From positions 136,352 through 200,351 of the forward strand of contig NZ_SMGQ01000013.1 in NCBI RefSeq assembly GCF_004339095.1: a DNA stretch of 64,000 bases, given 5' to 3'. A program made the translations under genes and the position numbers. This document shows, one piece after another, positions 3,549-62,697 of this stretch. This DNA comes from Natranaerovirga hydrolytica (GTDB lineage: Bacteria > Bacillota > Clostridia > Lachnospirales > DSM-24629). Within the stretch, counting starts at the first letter, position 1. Each line of letters begins with the position of its first letter. The notes under the pieces were generated by a model. That model was not told the DNA's origin. It made no database searches and saw only the letters and a program-made list of their open reading frames with translations.

Positions 3549-3576
3549 TATTTGACTGTTGATGCTTTCTGACTTT

Positions 3577-3693
3577 ACATAACAAGATTATTTCGGTTCG
3601 CTGACGCACATTCCTTCACTGGGTACAAGCACCGCCAAGGAGAAGGACTTTTCAGGTCTAGTTCAGGGACGTCACAAACACGAGCTGTTATCT
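3577..3693 (+). repeat. attC-like site 5
   Basis: ACATAAC-AAGATTATTTCGG ... CATTCCTTCACTGGGTACAAGCACC ... GTTCAGGGACGTC ... GTTATCT (3687-3693). Near-identical to site 1 at both ends. Confidence 0.75.
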
Positions 3694-3731
3694 GACATTA
3701 TTGATAGTATAGAAAGGAGCAAGATTGGAAT

Positions 3732-4214
3732 ATGATTAAGAGTAACAAAATTATTTTTTATACAGTTATTATAAGCATCATGATGTCTTTAATTAACAAT
3801 GTATTACCATTTTTTATTACTACTTATTATTTAGATAATGTAGAGAGATTGAATGGTATACTCTTTAGTATTGAGATAATAATTGCACTAATAGGATTTG
3901 TCTGCGTTGGGATATATATAATTAAAAAAGCAACATTTTCGGATGTAAGAAATGCAACTATAGTCTTTACAATGTACATTGCTATTGCCTTCGTTTTACA
4001 ACATTTCATACAAAGATTAATAGGGTATAGCTGGTTGCTGATACTTTTGTTTTTCCCTATAAGTATGTTTACAGCATTTCCTAAAATTATTATTTGGCAA
4101 ACTAAGAGTCCAATAATATTGTTTGTAATCAGTTCGATTTTATTTCCGTGCATATTTTTTGTAATAAAAGGAATAGCGATAAGTTTCCAAAGCTGGCGCA
4201 ATAACAACAGATAA
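3732..4214 (+). CDS. hypothetical polytopic membrane protein
   Basis: 160 aa with 4-5 hydrophobic helices. Confidence 0.4.
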   Translation: MIKSNKIIFYTVIISIMMSLINNVLPFFITTYYLDNVERLNGILFSIEIIIALIGFVCVGIYIIKKATFSDVRNATIVFTMYIAIAFVLQHFIQRLIGYSWLLILLFFPISMFTAFPKIIIWQTKSPIILFVISSILFPCIFFVIKGIAISFQSWRNNNR

Positions 4215-7130: not shown

Positions 7131-7173
7131 TTATTTGCTAGGGTGAGTGTTTCGAAGATTATGAGTCAACATC

Positions 7174-7289
7174 TTATAACAAAATGTCTCCATTCGCTAT
7201 GCCACCCCTTTACTGAGTCCAAGTACTACCTCTGATGAAGGGCTTTGTGGGTCCAGTTTAAGAAGGTGGAGAACAACAGAAAGTTAGAT
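7174..7289 (+). repeat. attC-like site 8
   Basis: TTATAAC (7174-7180) ... CCATTCGCT ... GGTCCAGTTTAAGAAGGTGG ... GTTAGAT (7283-7289), a perfect GTTRRRY. Confidence 0.7.
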
Positions 7290-7390
7290 GACATAGACTC
7301 TTCTTATCGAGTATTATTTTAGGGTTGATAGAAGAAAACATATTGCAAGTATTATATATGCTATATAATGTATATTAGGAGGAAATAGAA

Positions 7391-14015: not shown

Positions 14016-14384
14016 TAGAGAAGACATAACTAAATTTTCATCGATGAATAGTTAATAGTTGTTTTATAGAAAAAATATATTGAAATATTTACAATTTTAC
14101 TTAAAAATATGATAAAATAAGATAGTATAATATATACGCAAGGACTGAGAAATATAATGAGTCCAGTAAAATAAAAAGCGATTTAACATATAACAATACT
14201 ACTTAAAGGTGCCTCTTGGGAGGAAATCATGTAAATTGAAGACATAAAAAAATAAATATTATTAGAATCTTACATTGTGGACGAGATATGACAAAAATAA
14301 AAATACATCCGTGGGAAATAACATAAAGTTCTCATGGGTGTTTTTTTATATATTTCTTAAGGGGTTATGTGATTTCCATCATGC

Positions 14385-14475
14385 AACAATCTTGTTCACA
14401 GGGGAAAAGAACTGCCTACACAGAAGGGTTCTATGGTTCAGTTCAGGAACGTCGTGAACAGCAAAATATTATAAG
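14385..14475 (+). repeat. attC-like site 14
   Basis: GGTTCTATGGTTCAGTTCAGGAACGTCGTGAACAGCAAAATATTATAAG parallels GGTCCAGTTCAGGAACGTCGG...AACAAAACGTTATCT. Confidence 0.5.
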
Positions 14476-14653
14476 TAATGGTGATATTGGTATCTTGAAA
14501 GGAAGTGAGCTGTGTGAAAAGAATAAAACGAATTAAATTCTCAGTGCAGTTAAGATAATCTGGTAGCAGATTGTACTGAGATTATAAATGTGTTATCAGT
14601 TAACTGCACTGCTTTTTATTAAAAATAAATAATAAAAAGGAGTACAAGTTATA

Positions 14654-19303: not shown

Positions 19304-20077
19304 ATGATTACCATTTATGATTGGTTTGGCTATGAATTACCCATAAAAGAACGTTATCGGTTAATAAAAGAAGCTGGATTTGATGGCGTTTTATTATGGT
19401 GGAGTGATGGCTTTGGTCGGAACGATTATCGCAACGGGCCACAAATTGCGAGGGAAGTGGGGCTTTTTATAGAAAATATCCACACCCCAGTCCAAAATCA
19501 AAACAACCTCTGGCTTGACAATCTGGACGGTGAAACCTTAACCGATTGTTATTTGCAATGTGTTTCAGATTGCGCAGAATTCGAAATTCCCACAATGGTG
19601 GTGCACCTGCCCAACGAAGACTATCCATATAATGAGTTGGGACTGGATAGAATTAAGCGAATCACTGAAAAAGCTGAACAGCTTGGTGTCAATGTTGCAC
19701 TAGAGAATTTACGGAACCTTACCAATTTGGAATATGTGCTGGAGCAAGTGGATTCCTTACGTATAGGGTTCTGTTATGACTGTGGGCATCACTACCGCTA
19801 CTATCCGGGTAAAGATTTATTATCTAAGTATGGCTCCCGGGTGATGGCATTACATTTGCATGATAACGGCGGAGAGTATGAGCAACACCGGTTACCCTTT
19901 GATGGTACGATTGATTGGTCTGTAGCCATGAAAAAAATTGCAGAAACGGGTTATTCTGGTGCCACTGCAATAGAGGCTATGAATTGGGATTATAAGGATT
20001 TATCGGCAGAAGAGTTTTTACAAGAAGCGTTTCAGCGAGCAAAAAGGCTGGAAGCCTTAAAACTTTATAATCCATGA
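19304..20077 (+). CDS. sugar phosphate isomerase/epimerase (xylose-isomerase-like TIM barrel)
   Basis: 257 aa. Noticeably more GC-rich than its neighbours. Confidence 0.55.
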   Translation: MITIYDWFGYELPIKERYRLIKEAGFDGVLLWWSDGFGRNDYRNGPQIAREVGLFIENIHTPVQNQNNLWLDNLDGETLTDCYLQCVSDCAEFEIPTMVVHLPNEDYPYNELGLDRIKRITEKAEQLGVNVALENLRNLTNLEYVLEQVDSLRIGFCYDCGHHYRYYPGKDLLSKYGSRVMALHLHDNGGEYEQHRLPFDGTIDWSVAMKKIAETGYSGATAIEAMNWDYKDLSAEEFLQEAFQRAKRLEALKLYNP

Positions 20078-20104
20078 AAACAAAAATAATTTACAACAAA
20101 CTTA

Positions 20105-20210
20105 TTCTCGTTTGGTGACGCAATTCCTTCATTAGGTGGAAGCACCCCTAAGAAAAAGGACTACGGGGGTCCATTTTAGTAAGTTGGGAATAACAAAACG
20201 CTGGTGGATT
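20105..20210 (+). repeat. attC-like site 17
   Basis: TTCTCGTTTGGTGACGCAATTCCTTCATTAGGTGGAAGCACC ... GGGTCCATTTTAGTAAGTTGGGAATAACAAAACG. Confidence 0.6.
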
Positions 20211-20282
20211 AAACCCTGTAAGTTAATTGGGTACGACAGATGAAAAAGTCAAATAAATAAAGATTACTGGGAGGAAAATTGT

Positions 20283-35650: not shown

Positions 35651-35804
35651 AGACAGAGAATGACCAAGTTTTTGATGTGTATCTAAAAAAGTAGGATGCC
35701 CTTTTCTGTTGCACTTTGGTGTATAAAATTGACAGATGAATATAAAAAGCGTATATATAAGTAAAGCAGTAGTTGTATATTCAAAAGATGAAAGGGTGAC
35801 AGAC

Positions 35805-36659
35805 ATGAAAGTGATAGACGCACATCTTCATTTTTCTAATAGAGAAGGGTTTAAAAACACAGCAAAAGAAATTGGCCAAGTGGATTACAGTGCAACTGGA
35901 TTAAAAAAATCATTTCAATCAGCTAATATTGTTGCAGGTGTCATAATGGGAACACCAAGTAGAGAAACCAATCAAGTTTATGGTTACCCAGATGAATTTA
36001 TATATGAAGATGGAACATTAGACTGTTTGTTTTCATGTGTAGGTGTTAATTCAGAAAGGTTAATTGAAGATGCTGAAACGGAACTGTTTTATATAGAAGA
36101 AGAACTTAAAAAAGATAAAGTAGTGGGCATAAAAATTTATGCAGGATATTTTCATTATTATGCTTATGATCCAATATATACACCGGTTTATGAATTAGCA
36201 AAAAAATACAATATTCCAGTTGCCATACATTGTGGGGATACCCAATCACCCAGCGGGCTTTTGAAATACGCCCATCCTTTAACCATAGATGAACTGGCTG
36301 TCAACTATTCAGATATTAACTTTATTATATGCCATATAGGTTCGCCTTGGGCTTTAGATGCGGCAGAGGTAATTGCTAAAAATAACAACGTGTATACCGA
36401 TTTATCAGGATTATTGGCAGGTAATGAAAAAGAAGTTAGAAGGATGAAATCAGTAAGATTATTTAGAGAGCATTATCAAAAAGCACTGATCTTTGCAAAT
36501 AGTTATGATAAGGTTTTGTTTGGAACAGATTGGCCTCTTGTGCCCATACAACCTTATGTTGAGTTTGTTCAAAGTCTTATTCCTAAAGAATATTATGAAC
36601 AAGTGTTTTATAAAAATGCTTTAGAGGTGTATTCAAGAATGAAAAAATATATTGATTGA
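35805..36659 (+). CDS. amidohydrolase-family metal-dependent hydrolase
   Basis: N-terminal IDAHLHF metal-binding motif. Confidence 0.6.
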   Translation: MKVIDAHLHFSNREGFKNTAKEIGQVDYSATGLKKSFQSANIVAGVIMGTPSRETNQVYGYPDEFIYEDGTLDCLFSCVGVNSERLIEDAETELFYIEEELKKDKVVGIKIYAGYFHYYAYDPIYTPVYELAKKYNIPVAIHCGDTQSPSGLLKYAHPLTIDELAVNYSDINFIICHIGSPWALDAAEVIAKNNNVYTDLSGLLAGNEKEVRRMKSVRLFREHYQKALIFANSYDKVLFGTDWPLVPIQPYVEFVQSLIPKEYYEQVFYKNALEVYSRMKKYID

Positions 36660-36693
36660 CCTTATGCCTCTTACTAAGGTAAGAGACATAAGA
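36660..36693. repeat. long hairpin CTTATGCCTCTTAC-N4-GTAAGAGACATAAG (family B copy)
   Basis: Inverted repeat with 14-bp arms. Paralogous copies at 48316 and 58587. Confidence 0.55.
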
Positions 36694-46972: not shown

Positions 46973-48283
46973 ATGACGTTAAATCCAGTGGTTATTTCCG
47001 TTATTGTTATGATTGTATTATGTCTGTTTAAGTTGAATGTAATCCTTTCATTAATTATTGCCGCTTTAGTAGGAGGTACTTTAGCAGGATTTCCCCTTGA
47101 TGAAACAATGGGTATTCTAATTGAAGGAATGAGTGGCAATGCAAGTACAGCATTAAGTTATATTTTATTGGGGATGTTGGCTGCAGCGATTCATAAATCA
47201 GGAGTTGCAAGAGTTTTGACAAAAAGTATAGGTAGATGGATAGCAGGAAAAGGTGTGGTTTTAGTTATTATACTTGCAGTCATTAGTAGTTTGTCACAAA
47301 ATTTGATTCCAGTTCATATTGCATTTATACCAATCTTAATTCCACCATTAATTGCAGTAATGAATAAGTTGAAAATAGACAGAAGAGCTGTTGCTACTTC
47401 TTTGACATTTGGTTTAAAAGCACCTTATGTAGCCTTACCATTTGGATATGGTTGGATCTTTCATGGATTAATCAGTGAACATATGACAAGAAATGGTATG
47501 GAAATTGCTCAAGGCGATGTATGGCGTTCTATGTGGATTGCTGGGTTTGCCATGTTTGTAGGTTTGTTGGTTGCTATTTTTATTACATATAGAAAACCTA
47601 GAGATTATGAAGCAATAGATATTGTTGATGATTCAAATATAACAAGTTTTGAAGATGAAAGAATTACAAGAAGACAATTTGTTGCTTTAATTGGTGCAGT
47701 AGCAGCTTTTGGAGTACAATTGTCTCCTTTAGAATCTTTACACATTGGCGCTTTAGTAGGTATTGCAATAATGGTTGTAGGTGGCGCCATTAAGTGGAGT
47801 GATATTGATGAAATGGTTAACAATGGTATTGGCATGATGGGATATATCGCATTTGTTATGTTGGTCGCTGCGGGTTATGCAGAAGTACTTGATACAACAG
47901 GTGGTGTTCATACTTTAGTAGAAACCATTACGGGTGTAATAGGTCAAAATCAACTTATAGCAGCTACCATAATGATTTTAATTGGTCTAGTCATTACAAT
48001 GGGAATCGGTACTTCGTTTGGTACCATCTCTATTATAGCTGTTTTATATGTCCCTTTAGCAACGGCAGTAGGTTTTAGTCCAATGGCTACCGTTTTATTA
48101 ATTGGTACAGCAGCAGCCCTAGGAGACGCAGGTTCGCCAGCATCGGATAGTACGTTAGGACCTACTGCTGGATTAAATGTAGATGGTCAGCATGATCATA
48201 TTTGGGATACTTGTGTACCTACGTTCTTGCATTATAATATACCATTAATTATTTTTGGAATCATTGGTGCAATTATGTTGTAA
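46973..48283 (+). CDS. GntP/NhaC-type anion/cation permease
   Basis: 436 aa with about 12 TM helices. Confidence 0.45.
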   Translation: MTLNPVVISVIVMIVLCLFKLNVILSLIIAALVGGTLAGFPLDETMGILIEGMSGNASTALSYILLGMLAAAIHKSGVARVLTKSIGRWIAGKGVVLVIILAVISSLSQNLIPVHIAFIPILIPPLIAVMNKLKIDRRAVATSLTFGLKAPYVALPFGYGWIFHGLISEHMTRNGMEIAQGDVWRSMWIAGFAMFVGLLVAIFITYRKPRDYEAIDIVDDSNITSFEDERITRRQFVALIGAVAAFGVQLSPLESLHIGALVGIAIMVVGGAIKWSDIDEMVNNGIGMMGYIAFVMLVAAGYAEVLDTTGGVHTLVETITGVIGQNQLIAATIMILIGLVITMGIGTSFGTISIIAVLYVPLATAVGFSPMATVLLIGTAAALGDAGSPASDSTLGPTAGLNVDGQHDHIWDTCVPTFLHYNIPLIIFGIIGAIML

Positions 48284-48315
48284 AAAAATAGTATGATTTT
48301 CAGCGAAACGGGTGT

Positions 48316-48340
48316 CTCTTACGTTAGTAAGAGGCATCAG
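48316..48340. repeat. hairpin family B copy (CTCTTAC-GTTA-GTAAGAG)
   Basis: Perfect 7-8 bp inverted repeat sharing the arm sequence with 36660 and 58587. Confidence 0.5.
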
Positions 48341-48349
48341 TTGAGTTAA

Positions 48350-48404
48350 ATATGAAAGCCCAATCTGCAAACTTGCTAGCAAGGATTTGGAGATTGGGCT
48401 TTTG
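48350..48404 (+). repeat. hairpin family A copy 1: variable stem enclosing conserved loop GCAAACTTGCTAGCAAGGATTTGG, then T-tract
   Basis: Stem GCCCAATCT/AGATTGGGC. Preceded by AATATGAAAG. Followed by TTTTG, so it probably terminates the permease gene. Confidence 0.65.
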
Positions 48405-48740
48405 TTGATATGAATCAAGTCTATTTTATGCTCTTTATTATCCTATAATTGGGCTCAGAGAGTAAAGATAGCTTGGTTTTTAAAAAAATAAAAGGCATTT
48501 ACCAACAGAGTCTTTACAGTTAAATTGTATAAATGCTAAAATACTTATGAGAAAACTTTTTTGAAATAATGATGTAGAAAAAATCAGGCCATCAATTGAG
48601 TGAAATTTATTAAAAAAAGATAAGAAGATTTATAACCATAAAAAGGATTTATGTAAAAGAAGAAAGAAAAGGGCCATTAAATCTTTTGATATTAACCTGC
48701 CCCATGTAGCTCCAAACCCAGTAGCTACACAGGTTATCAA

Positions 48741-48797
48741 TGAAAGTTAAATTTCCAAATCCTTGCCAGCAAGTTTGCAGATTTAACTTTCATATTA
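48741..48797 (-). repeat. hairpin family A copy 2 (inverted orientation)
   Basis: Stem GAAAGTTAAAT/ATTTAACTTTC. The loop is the reverse complement of the conserved motif. 22 nt upstream of the LacI start. Confidence 0.65.
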
Positions 48798-48812
48798 ATA
48801 TAGGAGGGTCGT

Positions 48813-49802
48813 ATGACTATATATGATATTGCTAAAGAAGCAGGTGTATCTGCGAGTACAGTTTCTAGAGTGATCAATAATAAGCCAGGTATTAAAGAAG
48901 AAACAAGGGAAAAAGTTAAAGAATTACTAGAAAAATATAACTATGTACCCAATGTAGCTGCAAGAGGATTGGTTATGCAGAAATCTAAAACCATTGGTAT
49001 TCTAGTTGCTGACGTAAGAGTAGCACACCATATAGAAGGGGCATATATCATTGAAAAAGAATTAGCTGCAATAGGATATTATAGCATTATTCTTAATACA
49101 GGTCATAAAAATGAGGAAAAAGAAAAATATATTAAAGCGTTAGAACAAAGAAGAGTAGATGGTATTATACTTATTGGTTCGACTTTCCAATGTGACTATA
49201 TTAAAGAAGTCATTCGTAAATCCTTTAGAGAAATTCCAGTGATTATAGCCAATGGCTATATTGATTTACCCAATGTTTATGGCATTATAATTGATGAGTT
49301 GAATGGAATCAAGGATTGTGTTAATCTTCTACACTCAAAAGGGCATACTAAATTAGCATTTGTATTAGATCATCATACACCTAGTAATTATTCAAAAAAA
49401 ATAGGTTTTATGGAGGCCATGATACAAGAAGGATGGCAAGAAGACCAATTATGGTTATATGAAACAACAAGCTCAGTAGAAGGTGGATATCATATTACAA
49501 AAGAAATTGTTAAAGAGCATCCTGATATTGAGGGGATTGTTTTTAGTGTAGACATTACAGCAGTAGGTGCCATAAGAGCTTTAATGGATTTGAAAATTTC
49601 TGTACCAGAGCAGGTAAGCATTACAGGCGTTGATAATACTATTTTTGGAGAAATTTCATATCCTAAACTGACCTCATTAGATAATAAACTGAAGGATTTA
49701 AGCCGGTTTTGTGCCAAAGTATTGATAGATGTTTTAGAAGGGAAAGATACACCTAAAAAGATGATGTTATTTACATCTATAGTAGAAAGAGAAAGTACTT
49801 AA
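48813..49802 (+). CDS. LacI-family transcriptional regulator
   Basis: HTH MTIYDIAKEAGVSASTVSRVINNK and a periplasmic-binding-like domain. Confidence 0.8.
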   Translation: MTIYDIAKEAGVSASTVSRVINNKPGIKEETREKVKELLEKYNYVPNVAARGLVMQKSKTIGILVADVRVAHHIEGAYIIEKELAAIGYYSIILNTGHKNEEKEKYIKALEQRRVDGIILIGSTFQCDYIKEVIRKSFREIPVIIANGYIDLPNVYGIIIDELNGIKDCVNLLHSKGHTKLAFVLDHHTPSNYSKKIGFMEAMIQEGWQEDQLWLYETTSSVEGGYHITKEIVKEHPDIEGIVFSVDITAVGAIRALMDLKISVPEQVSITGVDNTIFGEISYPKLTSLDNKLKDLSRFCAKVLIDVLEGKDTPKKMMLFTSIVEREST

Positions 49803-49832: not shown

Positions 49833-49912
49833 AACAATTAAGAATTGAAAAAAACATATTAACATGATATCATAAAATGGCAATCGATTGCAAAAGAATA
49901 GAGGTGAGCAAT

Positions 49913-50902
49913 ATGACGATATATGACATTGCAAAAGTAGCTGGTGTTTCAGCCAGTACAGTTTCAAGAGTCATTAATAACAAAGAAAATATAAAAAAAG
50001 AAACAAGAGATAAAGTGAAACAAATACTTAGAGAGTACAATTATATTCCCAATGATCAAGCTAGAGGCTTGGTTACTCGTTCTACAAAATTAATTGGTAT
50101 TTTGGTAGTGGATATTCGTAACGCCCATCATACAGATATAGCATTTGTTGTAGAAAAATTTTTGAGGAAAAAAGGGTACTGCTCCATCATTCTCAATGCA
50201 GGAGAAGATGAAAGTGAAATGTGTGAAGCCATAAGAATAATAGAGCAAAGAAGAGTGGATGGTGTGTTATTAATCGGTTCAATGTTTCAAAATAAAAGAG
50301 TTAAGACAGAAATTATTCAAAATCTATCTCACATACCGATTGTTATGGCCAATGGTTATATTGATCGTTCAAATGTCTATGGGGTTTTAGTAGATGAATA
50401 TGAGGGGGTTAAAAAATGTGTGGATTTATTGTTTTCAAAAGGCAAAAACAATATTGCTTTCATTGCTAAAAGTACTACGCCTAGTAGTCAAGAAAAGATT
50501 AAAGGTTATATAGAAGGATTAAAAAAGCATAATTATTTAGAAAAAGACATAATCATTATAGAAACAAATAACACCTTAAAAGGTGGTTATAAAGCAACCC
50601 AAGAATTATTAATGGAAAAGAAACATATTGATGCCATTATATACTCAGAAGATATTATTGCAGTAGGGGGAATACAAGCAGTAAAGGATTTGGGATTATG
50701 TATTCCTAAAAAGGTTGCAATTATAGGAGTTGATAACACAATCTATGGTCAAATCATAAGTCCCAGTTTAACTTCTTTAGATAATAAAATGACAGATATG
50801 GCATTACAAGCTTCCAATATTCTTATTGATGACTTAGAAGGTATGAATCATCCAGAAAAAATCATGTTATTTTCAGAAATTGTGGAAAGAGAAACTACTT
50901 GA
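49913..50902 (+). CDS. LacI-family transcriptional regulator (paralogue of the upstream one)
   Basis: The first 25 residues are near-identical to the upstream LacI. Confidence 0.8.
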   Translation: MTIYDIAKVAGVSASTVSRVINNKENIKKETRDKVKQILREYNYIPNDQARGLVTRSTKLIGILVVDIRNAHHTDIAFVVEKFLRKKGYCSIILNAGEDESEMCEAIRIIEQRRVDGVLLIGSMFQNKRVKTEIIQNLSHIPIVMANGYIDRSNVYGVLVDEYEGVKKCVDLLFSKGKNNIAFIAKSTTPSSQEKIKGYIEGLKKHNYLEKDIIIIETNNTLKGGYKATQELLMEKKHIDAIIYSEDIIAVGGIQAVKDLGLCIPKKVAIIGVDNTIYGQIISPSLTSLDNKMTDMALQASNILIDDLEGMNHPEKIMLFSEIVERETT

Positions 50903-58523: not shown

Positions 58524-58582
58524 ATAATATGAAAATGTAATTTGCAAACTTGCTGGCAAGGATTTGGAAATTACATTTTCAG
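58524..58582 (+). repeat. hairpin family A copy 3
   Basis: Stem GAAAATGTAATTT/AAATTACATTTTC (13 bp). Loop GCAAACTTGCTGGCAAGGATTTGG. Confidence 0.65.
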
Positions 58583-58586
58583 CAAA

Positions 58587-58620
58587 CCTTATGCCTCTTA
58601 CGTCAGTAAGAGGCATAAGG
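58587..58620. repeat. hairpin family B copy (perfect 15-bp arms CCTTATGCCTCTTAC-GTCA-GTAAGAGGCATAAGG)
   Basis: Perfect inverted repeat. Confidence 0.6.
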
Positions 58621-58625
58621 TGAGA

Positions 58626-58690
58626 TAATATGAAAGTACTAATTTGCAAACTTGCTGGCAAGGATTTGAAATTAATGCTTTTATTGAAAT
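58626..58690 (+). repeat. hairpin family A copy 4
   Basis: Stem GTACTAATTT/AAATTAATGC (imperfect). Loop GCAAACTTGCTGGCAAGGATTTG. Confidence 0.55.
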
Positions 58691-58744
58691 CTTGTGTCTG
58701 AAGCGTAGCGTAAGGTATTTTCATAAGTTGAGTGATATGAAATA

Positions 58745-60788: not shown

Positions 60789-61017
60789 ATAAAAACTCCT
60801 TTAAGACATTTACTTAAATATTATTATACCAAAACCATATGAAGAAAAAATGAATACATATAATAATTTATAGTCATATTTATACCAATTCTATTATATA
60901 TATAAGAGGGTATAATTATTTTGCCTAAAATTATATATTTTCAAGGATAACCTGTTTTTTACTGAGTTTGGACCTGTATGGAGCAGGTTAAATTAAAATG
61001 TAAAGGGAGAATAAAAA

Positions 61018-62697
61018 ATGAAGCAAAGAATGAAAAAAATTTTTTCTATCATTTTGACATTAAGTGTGGCAATGACGTTGGTAATGCCAACTCAAGTTTT
61101 AGGGGCTAATGAAAAGAGACAGATTATTAATGTTGGAGAGAATTCTTGTGCTGTTATTATGAATGATGGTAGTTTATGGACTTGGGGAAACAATCAAGAT
61201 GGACAATTAGGTGATGGTACAAAACAAAACAGAAACAAGCCTGTGAAGATAATGGAAAATGTCGTACAAGTTTCCATAGGAGAAAGCCATGGATTAGCAG
61301 TAAAAAGTGATGGTACGTTATGGGGCTGGGGATCAAATTTGTTTTATCAATTAGGTGATCTTGAAGAGATTGATGTCCTTACGCCTGTATTATTAATGGA
61401 AGATGTTGCTACGGCTTCTGCAGGTGGTGCTTTATCATTGGTTGTCAAAAAAGATGGGACACTGTGGGGAGCAGGCAGTAATTATTTGGGAATGTTAGGT
61501 GTTGGAGAAGATGTGTATACAAGAGAATTTGTAAAAATCTTAGATGATGTAGAAAAAGTATATTCAGGAAACTGGCACAATGGAGCCATTAAAAAAGATG
61601 GTAGTTTGTGGGTTTGGGGAGACAATATAGATGGACAGTTAGGTGACGGAACAACTGAAATAAGATATACACCAATAAAAATAATGGATAACGTTAAAGA
61701 CGTTGTCATGGTCAGATGGCATACATTGGTTATAAAAGAAGATAATAGTTTATGGGGATTTGGTCGAAATGGGCTTGGACAATTAGGAGATGGTACAGAG
61801 GAGAATAAAAAAACACCTATAAAAATAATGGATGATGTCAAGAAAGCATCCATAGAAAGCCAATACACTGTTGTGTTAAAAAATGATAATACGTTATGGG
61901 AGTTTGGTTATAGAGGATTTATAGAGGACTCAGAATATGGTATGCTTATGCTAACACCAGAAAAATTAAAAGAAGATGTAATGAGTATGGCAGTTGGGGA
62001 AAGACATATATTGATAGTGACCTTAGATGGGGACTTAGTGACTATGGGTGAAAACGAATCTGGTCAATTAGGAGATGGAACCAATGAGGATAATTATAAG
62101 GGTGTAGTCATTATAGATGGATTAACAAATGAACCAATTTTTTATTCAGAACCCAATCAAGAAGAAAGCTCAAAACCATCTTTATGGGCAGAAGAAGGAG
62201 TAAATGAAGCCATTCAGTATGATTTAGTAACTGAAAGAGTTTTAAGCCATTATCAAGAAAATATAACACGAGAAGAATTTTGTGAGTTGGTTGTCAAGTT
62301 GTATGAAAATTTGAAAGGCAAACCATTAGAGGTATCCGTGGCAAATGAGTTTATAGATACAAATAATGAAGAAGTATTAAAAGCTTATGAACTAGGCATT
62401 GTATATGGCATTAGTCAGGATAAATTTGGACCGGCACAATCCATTACTAGAGAAGAAATAGCCGTTATGTTTGATAGACTTTTAAAGGCTTTAGAAATTA
62501 ATCCAACACTAACAATGGAATATGTTTATTTCTCAGATGAAGCAGATATATCTACTTGGGCAAAAGACTCGGTTCAAAAACTAAATAAACTCGGTATCAT
62601 TAATGGCATTGGTTCAGAACAAATAGGACCTAAAGACTTAGCAACGAGAGAACAAGCCATCTTATTTGTCTTAAGAACCTATAAATTATTTAATTAA
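61018..62697 (+). CDS. RCC1-repeat protein with C-terminal SLH domains
   Basis: Signal peptide, repeated GQLGDGT blades, and a C-terminal SLH-like region. Confidence 0.6.
   Translation: MKQRMKKIFSIILTLSVAMTLVMPTQVLGANEKRQIINVGENSCAVIMNDGSLWTWGNNQDGQLGDGTKQNRNKPVKIMENVVQVSIGESHGLAVKSDGTLWGWGSNLFYQLGDLEEIDVLTPVLLMEDVATASAGGALSLVVKKDGTLWGAGSNYLGMLGVGEDVYTREFVKILDDVEKVYSGNWHNGAIKKDGSLWVWGDNIDGQLGDGTTEIRYTPIKIMDNVKDVVMVRWHTLVIKEDNSLWGFGRNGLGQLGDGTEENKKTPIKIMDDVKKASIESQYTVVLKNDNTLWEFGYRGFIEDSEYGMLMLTPEKLKEDVMSMAVGERHILIVTLDGDLVTMGENESGQLGDGTNEDNYKGVVIIDGLTNEPIFYSEPNQEESSKPSLWAEEGVNEAIQYDLVTERVLSHYQENITREEFCELVVKLYENLKGKPLEVSVANEFIDTNNEEVLKAYELGIVYGISQDKFGPAQSITREEIAVMFDRLLKALEINPTLTMEYVYFSDEADISTWAKDSVQKLNKLGIINGIGSEQIGPKDLATREQAILFVLRTYKLFN

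Follow-up and report, generated by a model that had tools for sequence, protein, structure and literature searches.

A hairpin family with a conserved bulged tip in intergenic spacers of Natranaerovirga hydrolytica and other Clostridia, possibly a small mosaic repeat of the REP/BOX/Correia kind

Bacterial spacers harbor several kinds of small palindromic repeat, among them the BOX elements of Streptococcus pneumoniae (boxA-boxB-boxC), modular hairpin repeats in which one module is amplified in tandem and which have no transposase of their own. REP elements are imperfect extragenic palindromes with a usual length of 20-40 nt (PMC3733652), whose hairpins are thought to work in RNA as terminators or stabilisers (PMC3733652, PMC6006769); Correia (NEMIS) elements of Neisseria and other MITEs are small non-autonomous insertions near genes (PMC3733652). 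The two surveys describe no REP family in Clostridia, and between them and our own literature searches we found no small palindromic intergenic repeat family of any kind in this class (PMC3733652, PMC6006769). Here we analyse a hairpin family, hairpin A, in a 64-kb stretch of the Natranaerovirga hydrolytica genome (the window) and in relatives from other Clostridia. Our main reading, to which we give a probability of roughly one half, is that it represents a new non-coding mosaic repeat, comparable to REP, BOX and Correia elements, which occupies intergenic and untranslated spacers in N. hydrolytica and other Clostridia.

The window holds four copies. A 24-nt pattern, GCAAACTTGCYRGCAAGGATTTGG, matches exactly at 48367-48390 (+; copy 1, central dinucleotide TA), 48755-48778 (-; copy 2, central TG) and 58544-58567 (+; copy 3), and with one mismatch, the final G to A, at 58646-58669 (+; copy 4); zero matches are expected by chance, and 100 dinucleotide shuffles returned none. 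A covariance model trained on 13 copies of hairpin A recovered exactly these four over the 64 kb, at 72-82 bits in sense and 28-39 bits in antisense orientation, with no further site above 17 bits in the window, and this difference in score gives hairpin A a defined sense strand. All four are hairpins of 55-60 nt with folding energies of -13.8 to -27.5 kcal/mol (z -3.6 to -5.9), and their complementary strands fold almost equally well. Copy 1 (48349-48408, +; 78.4 bits; -27.5 kcal/mol, z -5.6) is made up of AATATGAAAG, an extended hairpin and a T-rich tail, CTTTTGTTGA; copy 2 (48738-48797, -; 80.4 bits; -17.5 kcal/mol, z -5.4) is inverted relative to it. Copy 3 (58526-58585, +; 82.4 bits; -20.6 kcal/mol, z -5.9) has the variant AATATGAAAA, and copy 4 (58627-58687, +; 72.5 bits; -13.8 kcal/mol, z -3.6), whose stem is the weakest with one mismatch and one wobble pair, lies 102 nt past copy 3 in direct tandem. 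Pattern, covariance model and folding scores thus bear out the four-copy hairpin family that an earlier note had described from the sequence.

The internal structure differs from that first description in several respects. The 24-nt "loop" is indeed conserved in all four copies and is itself a bulged mini-hairpin, in which the helices CAAA/UUUG and CUUG/CAAG (4 bp each) flank a 2-nt GA bulge and enclose a 4-nt CUNG loop (CAAA-CUUG-[CUNG]-CAAG-(GA)-UUUG). The stems, said to be completely different, share an outer GAAAG/CTTTY and an inner ATYT/ARAT pairing and vary only in 4-5 central base pairs (CCCA, TTAA, TGTA, TACTA). These central bases covary and are fully complementary in every copy except copy 4; to speak of full stem covariation around an invariant loop is an overstatement. 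Likewise, the sequence reported to precede each copy is exact as AATATGAAAG in three of the four and takes the form AATATGAAAA in the other, and its GAAAG is part of the stem. An alternative fold, TTGCAA/TTGCAA, is not conserved across lineages and was discarded. The copies share no reading frame; a small peptide (MKAQSANLLARIW... in copies 1 and 2) was also considered and rejected, as it has no ribosome-binding site and meets a stop at codon 4 in copy 3 and a frameshift in copy 4.

Beyond hairpin A, the repeat is longer than first reported. Positions 48296-48411 and 58575-58690 are 75% alike over 116 nt because a second hairpin, B1, of the general form CCTTATGCCTCTTAC-N4-GTAAGAGGCATAAGG, accompanies hairpin A; it lies directly 5' of copy 1 at 48307-48340 (+; GTGTCTCTTAC-GTTA-GTAAGAGGCAT) and between copies 3 and 4 at 58586-58621 (+; ACCTTATGCCTCTTAC-GTCA-GTAAGAGGCATAAGGT, 16 bp). 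A solo B1 at 36659-36692 (-), overlapping the stop codon (36657-36659) of an amidohydrolase gene (35736-36659), indicates that the modules occur separately too. A further module, B2, comes next after copy 2 on the minus strand (48694-48735; AACCTGTGTAGCTAC...GCTACATGGGGCAGGTT), and a solo B2-like hairpin (82.5% over 40 nt, E 0.001) is found at 60949-60989 (+), upstream of an RCC1/SLH gene. Copy 4 is followed at 58691-58727 (+) by a degenerate hairpin in the B position, read from the sequence as CTTGTG...CATAAG, and then by GTTGAGTGATATGAAAT, the partial start of another unit, so that copies 3 and 4 form a direct tandem array A-B1-A-B-like with a 102-nt period. Hairpin A is therefore one module of an A/B1/B2 mosaic with a unit of about 100 nt.

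The four window copies sit in two spacers. Copy 1 lies in sense orientation 66 nt downstream of the stop codon of a permease gene (46973-48283) that is 100% identical to EDC19_1865 of this species; its stem contains G+C and is followed by CTTTTGTTG, and the other three copies are AT-rich. Copy 2 is antisense within the 5' leader of lacI, with about 16 nt separating it from the ATG at 48813. Copies 3 and 4, earlier assigned to the SHOCT leader, occupy the spacer that separates the stop of the histidine kinase gene from the start of the SHOCT gene, on the strand opposite to both. Upstream of the window copies stands TAATAT or TAAATAT without a usable -35, and a promoter scan of the window called none upstream of any hairpin A copy. 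Four copies were counted in about 73 kb (the 64-kb window and its right flank); neither the ORFs of the window nor the 10-kb right flank include a transposase, recombinase or HUH gene, and no window copy is surrounded by a target-site duplication. For the window histidine kinase we found no close orthologue, and an N. pectinivora locus chosen for comparison is not syntenic and carries no copy. Two further contigs (L031, L049) come from the same N. hydrolytica strain and are identical across the region. In an independent Logan assembly of this strain, one contig starts inside the core of copy 3, which fits an assembly break at repeated or palindromic sequence; the window copies share only about 30 nt, just below the presumed k-mer size.

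The motif is not confined to this genome. A single scan of species-representative genomes with CAAACTTGCNNGCAAGGATTTG yielded 25 loci. About half of these are chance or coding matches, for example in a Neisseria gene, and their central dinucleotides vary; the remainder are intergenic with TT, TG or TC at the centre. In all, the 22-nt tip occurs in about eight other Clostridia lineages, on stems that are unrelated yet complementary. Core carriers are the Eubacteriales MAG C1M08_25 (L005, L020, L024, L025; 5 copies, two of them 102 nt apart, the same spacing as in the window tandem), the MAG H07658-L1 (L001, L017, L022, L023), two Epulonipiscium MAGs (L003, L018) and the loci L010, L011, L012, L019 and L030, the last being the one real-looking match from a JGI metagenome scan. 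By source, the intergenic loci of the genome scan trace to C1M08_25, H07658-L1, the two Epulonipiscium MAGs, a Clostridia MAG from the Hadza gut, two MAGs of Christensenellaceae and one that is unclassified. Whole MAGs hold 5-7 exact cores each. Because the search that gathered the cross-lineage relatives demanded identity at 20 core bases, part of the uniformity of the core between lineages follows from the method; the intergenic position of the relatives, their complementary flanks and their multi-copy occurrence are independent of that search. A local fuzzy search also recovered core variants, with GG in place of the GA bulge or, in L019, AAAA...TTTT in place of CAAA...TTTG, where both partners of the outer core pair are replaced and the structure is kept. 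Three flank types can be told apart: type 1 in the window and C1M08_25, type 2 in H07658-L1, L010 and part of L019, and type 3 in L011.

Covariation of the flanking stem, first suggested from the four window copies, is also seen across lineages, where almost every copy has flanks that pair around its core. In an alignment of 13 copies, 83.9% of the flank cells are paired, compared with at most 59.3% when the partner is slid; of the 13 outer pairs, 9 are changed on both sides, and none of 500 shuffles reached the observed covariation score. A cruder, ungapped set of copies agrees. The relatives lie after genes, before genes, between convergent genes, in UTRs and in rRNA operon spacers, including one 65 nt upstream of a 16S rRNA gene (L003) and one in a 23S-tRNA-5S spacer (L030). 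Gene maps give a tally of about 14 copies in sense and about 7 in antisense orientation to local transcription, which does not suit a cis-regulatory leader of a single gene class. Rfam 15 gave no match in the window at the gathering threshold, nothing relevant around the window copies up to E=5, and no match at the element copies in 15 related loci; phage and plasmid blastn returned chance-level matches only, and literature searches by sequence and topic did not find hairpin A. Viral contigs contained no match to a strict pattern, and all 16 matches to a loose one, 15 of them in two conserved coding-gene contexts, were judged unrelated. Taken with the conserved centre and the covarying stem, the Rfam result upholds the earlier view that the family is more than a plain terminator and lies outside known families. 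No transposase adjoins the element at any exact-core locus.

Evidence for gain and loss comes from the Christensenellaceae lineage of L011, not from N. hydrolytica, through a comparison of contigs that encode MetK. Among contigs with identical MetK, four carry one unit (L051, L054, L055, L057; spacer 270-271 nt), three carry two (L052, L053, L056; spacer 418-420 nt) and one carries three (L058), the step between them being exactly 149 nt. The element is absent, with gene order the same, from eight contigs of a lineage at 95% MetK identity and from one contig each at 89% and 86%. In the alignment the element directly follows the -10 box of a radical-SAM gene promoter, and the flanks of the L051 insertion show no target-site duplication. 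At the MetK site the element is thus a recent gain, and it multiplies there in tandem. Presence and absence at one orthologous site are thus observed, in this Christensenellaceae lineage only; to that extent the mobility proposed earlier is supported, and the proposal that copies 1 and 2 are the ends of a mobile element is not (see below).

Several features point to function as a single strand, RNA and single-stranded DNA not being told apart by them. Hairpin A alone has a small stability advantage in the sense strand; for complete units of types 2 and 3 this advantage amounts to 4-13 kcal/mol. In all six copies of the type 2 unit (H07658-L1), hairpin A is combined with a closed junction, GGCACUU/AAGUGCC, holding three hairpins, and changes among them fall in loops or appear as G-U pairs. 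The last hairpin of type 2 and 3 units often has a C-GTYA-G apex, seen also in the B1 hairpin of the window and recurring on different stems in all three types, and type 3 units (L011/L058) end in a terminal hairpin with a T-rich tail. Several copies have a -10-like box 1-16 nt upstream: TATAAT stands 1-11 nt before the core in L011, L012 and L024, and L019 has a perfect promoter, TTGCAA-17-TATAAT, 12 nt before the core.

This same body of evidence, together with the TAATAT boxes of the window copies, sustains the main rival explanation, that each copy is a structured small RNA, or an RNA domain, of a multi-copy family and is driven by its own promoter, with the tandem arrays as sRNA gene clusters. 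Hairpin A would then be a 5' domain whose tip binds a protein or other partner, and the later hairpins, the last with its C-GUYA-G apex, would complete and terminate the RNA. We regard this as possible but on balance doubtful. A usable -35 is absent from the window copies, all type 2 copies and the internal L011 units, and the promoter scan was empty upstream of the copies in the window. Roughly a third of the copies run antisense to the only transcription that could plausibly read through them, and some lie within rRNA leaders or spacers or between a promoter and its ribosome-binding site. The flanks of hairpin A contain 18 G-U against 22 A-C oppositions, hence no strand bias and no G-U excess; the conserved region is largely base-paired rather than an exposed seed, and Rfam holds no similar family.

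Under the mosaic-repeat reading, the element would be non-autonomous and spread at the DNA level, multiplying locally through unequal recombination and acting as a single-stranded nucleic acid. When transcribed through, it would form a very stable RNA hairpin that may stop or protect transcripts in both directions, so that copy 1 would serve as the permease terminator, copies 3 and 4 as the end of the kinase operon, and copy 2 as a structured leader for lacI. A putative trans-acting protein would recognise the strongly conserved tip (GA/GG bulge, CUNG loop); by analogy with REP/RAYT systems and the end hairpins of IS200/IS605, this protein would most likely be the enzyme that moves the element. 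That the tip is common to distant Clostridia, on stems that vary freely, suggests a common protein partner, and its sharing between a soda-lake Lachnospirales isolate and gut Christensenellaceae points to a shared recognition partner. More tentatively, then, we propose that the 22-nt bulged mini-hairpin (CAAA-CUUG-CUNG-CAAG-GR-UUUG) may be the docking site of an undiscovered protein common to several Clostridia orders, either an enzyme that mobilises single-stranded DNA or an RNA-binding protein. Counted against the mobile-repeat reading are the lack of a transposase and of a target-site duplication, an apparently low copy number unlike that of classical REPs, an identical 22-nt tip across orders, which is unusual for REP and MITE families that normally diverge with their host, and the sense-strand stability and -10 boxes, which suit an RNA gene at least equally.

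Another explanation is that the copies are merely bidirectional intrinsic terminators, with an A-rich 5' flank (GAAAG) and a T-rich 3' flank (CTTTY) around a long stem, whose shared centre results from local duplication and has no function of its own; the finding would then be ordinary. The position of copy 1 after the permease gene and its ending in CTTTTGTTG agree with this, as do copies 3 and 4 after the kinase gene on the other strand, and L025 (3757-3813) has a canonical bidirectional terminator with a similar succession of A-tract, stem and T-tract, its apex even looking like half the core. We nevertheless consider it unlikely. A terminator scan found none at the copies, though bulged stems lie beyond its rules; the stems are AT-rich; copy 2 separates the likely promoter of lacI from the start codon of that gene; and termination alone leaves unexplained why distant lineages carry the 22-nt tip too, placed on unrelated stems and located in rRNA spacers and 5' leaders.

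The inverted arrangement of copies 1 and 2, noted earlier and confirmed here as 62-nt arms that are 84% complementary and 324 nt apart between the permease gene and lacI, invites two further readings. They bracket an AT-rich, gene-less spacer (48409-48693) in which the promoter scan called one good promoter-like site, at 48513-48542 (+; TTTACA-18-TAAAAT with TG), that faces lacI. As the ends of a MITE enclosing a 340-bp segment, one of the roles proposed in the earlier note, they are unsupported: they lack a target-site duplication, the spacer sequence turned up nowhere else in the window or among the loci fetched, and the remaining copies stand alone or in direct tandem. As the inverted repeats of a DNA switch, at which a recombinase would flip the 324-bp segment and its promoter, they have in their favor the arms themselves, the site directed toward lacI and a near-palindromic centre around a variable dinucleotide, reminiscent of a crossover site. 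Yet copies 1 and 2 do not agree in their central dinucleotide (TA against TG), no recombinase gene is present in the window or flank, the remaining copies, whether from this genome or from others, stand singly or in direct tandem, and both assemblies, which are of the same strain, show one orientation; we find nothing positive for a recombination site or invertible switch and judge it very improbable.

Also very improbable is a double-stranded operator for a transcription factor, such as the adjacent LacI-family repressors, a role suggested by the 12-bp palindrome CTTGC-YR-GCAAG just upstream of lacI and by the placement of the core directly after a -10 box in several lineages. LacI-family operators are palindromes of 14-20 bp upstream of the genes they regulate, typically with a central CG; the centre of hairpin A is TA or TG. 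Of the four copies, a single one has a LacI gene nearby, none precedes the Ldh_2/TRAP operon, the presumed target of these regulators, and the same sequence is found after the permease gene, between the kinase and SHOCT genes and, elsewhere, in rRNA operons. Moreover, the two half-sites do not mirror each other (CAAA-CTTGC versus CAAATCCTTGC), which is a conserved difference, and a double-stranded site has no need of long covarying flanking stems. Other candidates were set aside: integron attC sites (conserved base RYYYAAC ... GTTRRRY, variable apex, next to cassettes) have the opposite layout and a consensus that the bases of hairpins A and B do not fit consistently, and a sigma-54 promoter, CRISPR repeat, RAT antiterminator, ANTAR, K-turn and T-box terminator fit poorly when compared by eye with their consensus. 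CAAGGAU in the tip matches the CsrA SELEX core, and a CsrA site there is only remotely conceivable, since its GGA lies in the bulge.

The 22-nt hairpin offers a concrete bait for finding its recognition partner. Should a single-stranded-DNA enzyme dock on the tip, this would be the first REP/RAYT-like system in Clostridia; should an RNA-binding protein do so, the multi-hairpin units of 100-165 nt would constitute a new widespread class of structured RNA. The elements reshape promoters, leaders and gene ends and vary in number between strains; they also create spurious small ORFs, and in one short-read assembly a contig breaks at a copy. Through these effects on promoters, copy number and ORFs, they matter for annotation and for strain-level regulatory variation.

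How does hairpin A compare with the known systems in detail? The small RNAs LhrC1-5, Qrr1-5 and the csRNAs resemble it in unit length (about 100-150 nt), in occasional tandem arrangement, in having conserved and covarying parts and, for some copies, a promoter and terminator of their own; they differ in that the conserved part is usually an exposed seed, each copy has a regulated promoter, and copies inside rRNA spacers or mRNA leaders are not known. In IS200/IS605 elements and their gene-less derivatives (PATEs), a Y1 (HUH) transposase recognises, on one DNA strand, a short and imperfect subterminal hairpin of some 22 nt that contains unpaired bases, and recognition of this type would explain the conserved tip, the strand preference and the spread between distant hosts; against this, no tnpA or tnpB stands beside any copy, no conserved cleavage tetranucleotide was found, and the apex of hairpin B is variable. 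With Correia elements and other MITEs (RUP, ERIC, bcr1) it shares long transcribed hairpins that can bring -10 boxes and that are present or absent between strains; the defined terminal inverted repeats of MITEs, their target-site duplications (TA in Correia) and a related full-length insertion sequence were not found here, and the hairpin arms, which are inverted repeats, extend over the whole element and leave no separate termini to define.

The REP/BIME elements of Proteobacteria, which are mobilised by RAYT (a Y1 transposase whose gene REPs typically flank), are likewise extragenic imperfect palindromes, some with a bulge of 1-3 nt between two stems. They are found alone, as inverted pairs or in clusters interspersed with other short motifs, mostly after genes and in either orientation. 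Hairpin A is such a hairpin-folding extragenic palindrome with a bulge, 55-60 nt long rather than 20-40, and the GTAG/GTGG or CGTC tetranucleotide that stands 0-2 nt 5' of a REP stem is absent at the window copies. The type 2 relatives have CGTC 1 nt before the outer helix, perhaps by coincidence. Its apparent copy number is low compared with the tens to hundreds of REPs per genome, neither the window nor the 10-kb right flank contains a RAYT gene, and its tip is conserved on a variable stem, unlike REP families, which are conserved as a whole. With BOX elements it has in common intergenic non-coding modules of which one is amplified in tandem to a variable number; BOX modules are conserved whole within one genus, and here only the tips are common, across orders, so that no relationship in sequence is expected between the two. 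The element thus has the defining features of none of REP/BIME, BOX or Correia, though in its behaviour it is comparable to all three.

Two further hairpin modules, B1 and B2, belong to the mosaic repeat that contains hairpin A, the repeated 55-60 nt hairpin with a conserved tip. B1 (CCTTATGCCTCTTAC-N4-GTAAGAGGCATAAGG, with a stem of 13-16 bp) lies at window positions 36659-36692, 48307-48340 and 58586-58621, and it is found both accompanied by hairpin A and without it. The two window occurrences of B2 (GATAACCTG...CAGGTTAA) are at 48694-48735, adjoining hairpin A copy 2, and at 60949-60989, where the module stands alone upstream of the gene (61018-62697) for an SLH-domain protein with RCC1 repeats; this gene itself harbors internal DNA repeats at spacings of 144 to 576 nt. 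Copy 2 occupies the leader of the first of two neighbouring LacI-family genes (48813-49802 and 49877-50902), paralogues with 73-76% DNA identity across matched stretches (48788-48975 versus 49888-50075; 49141-49190 versus 50241-50290), and the pair precedes an Ldh_2/TRAP transporter/HAD/DUF386/SBP cluster. Copy 3, in turn, coincides with the start of a contig: position 1 of a Logan contig from the same strain corresponds to window position 58554, within the core of this copy, where the palindromic repeat probably broke the short-read assembly.

Outside this strain, the H07658-L1 MAG (L001, L017, L022, L023) carries hairpin A in a unit of ~165 nt with a distinct flank, termed type 2, in which hairpin A is followed by a predicted 7-bp helix (GGCACTT/AAGTGCC) enclosing three short hairpins; all six copies are predicted to form this cloverleaf-like junction. 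After the type 2 unit in this MAG comes a further common repeat (…GGATTGCCGCGGTC…CTCGCAATGACA). A canonical bidirectional terminator, AAAAAGAAAGACAAAATTGCAA-aacttac-TTGCAATTTTGTCTTTCTTTTT, is present at 3757-3813 of locus L025 from the C1M08_25 MAG, and its apex is similar to the 5' half of the core of hairpin A; this likeness may be due to chance or may be a clue to where the core came from. Separately, a different small repeat in a Christensenellaceae sister lineage (…GGAGGAAAC…CTCAAAGTTCCTCGGATAC…GCGGTGG…) differs in copy number between strains (L059 7093-7359 versus L060 7093-7219; L060 475-958 versus L059 718-958).

At its left end (1-25100), the window holds ~25 small genes of unrelated functions, every one on the + strand (Fic, GNAT, HAD, nitroreductases, SH3, PEMT, methyltransferase, transglutaminase, NUDIX, M50, MBL, DHFR and others), with a PhdYeFM/ParE pair immediately upstream (in locus L050). 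Gaps between these genes are occupied by a G+C-richer repeat of ~130 nt, again always on the + strand (600-760, 2255-2415, 3560-3720, 7159-7319, 14360-14520 and 20073-20233). Its consensus contains ...CATTCCTTCACTGGGTGCAAGCACCGCCTACGGAGAAGGGCTCTG..CAGTTCAGGAACGTCGGGAATAACAAAACGTTATCTGACAT and has obvious internal pairings (CCTTC/GAAGG, GGTGC/GCACC); a comparison with Rfam gave no match at the gathering threshold. The repeat may be a structured RNA belonging to a cassette-like array, or the array's recombination site. No integrase was seen within the 64-kb window; the layout of the small genes resembles that of a gene-cassette array (integron or CALIN-like), a kind of array that would be unusual for Clostridia.
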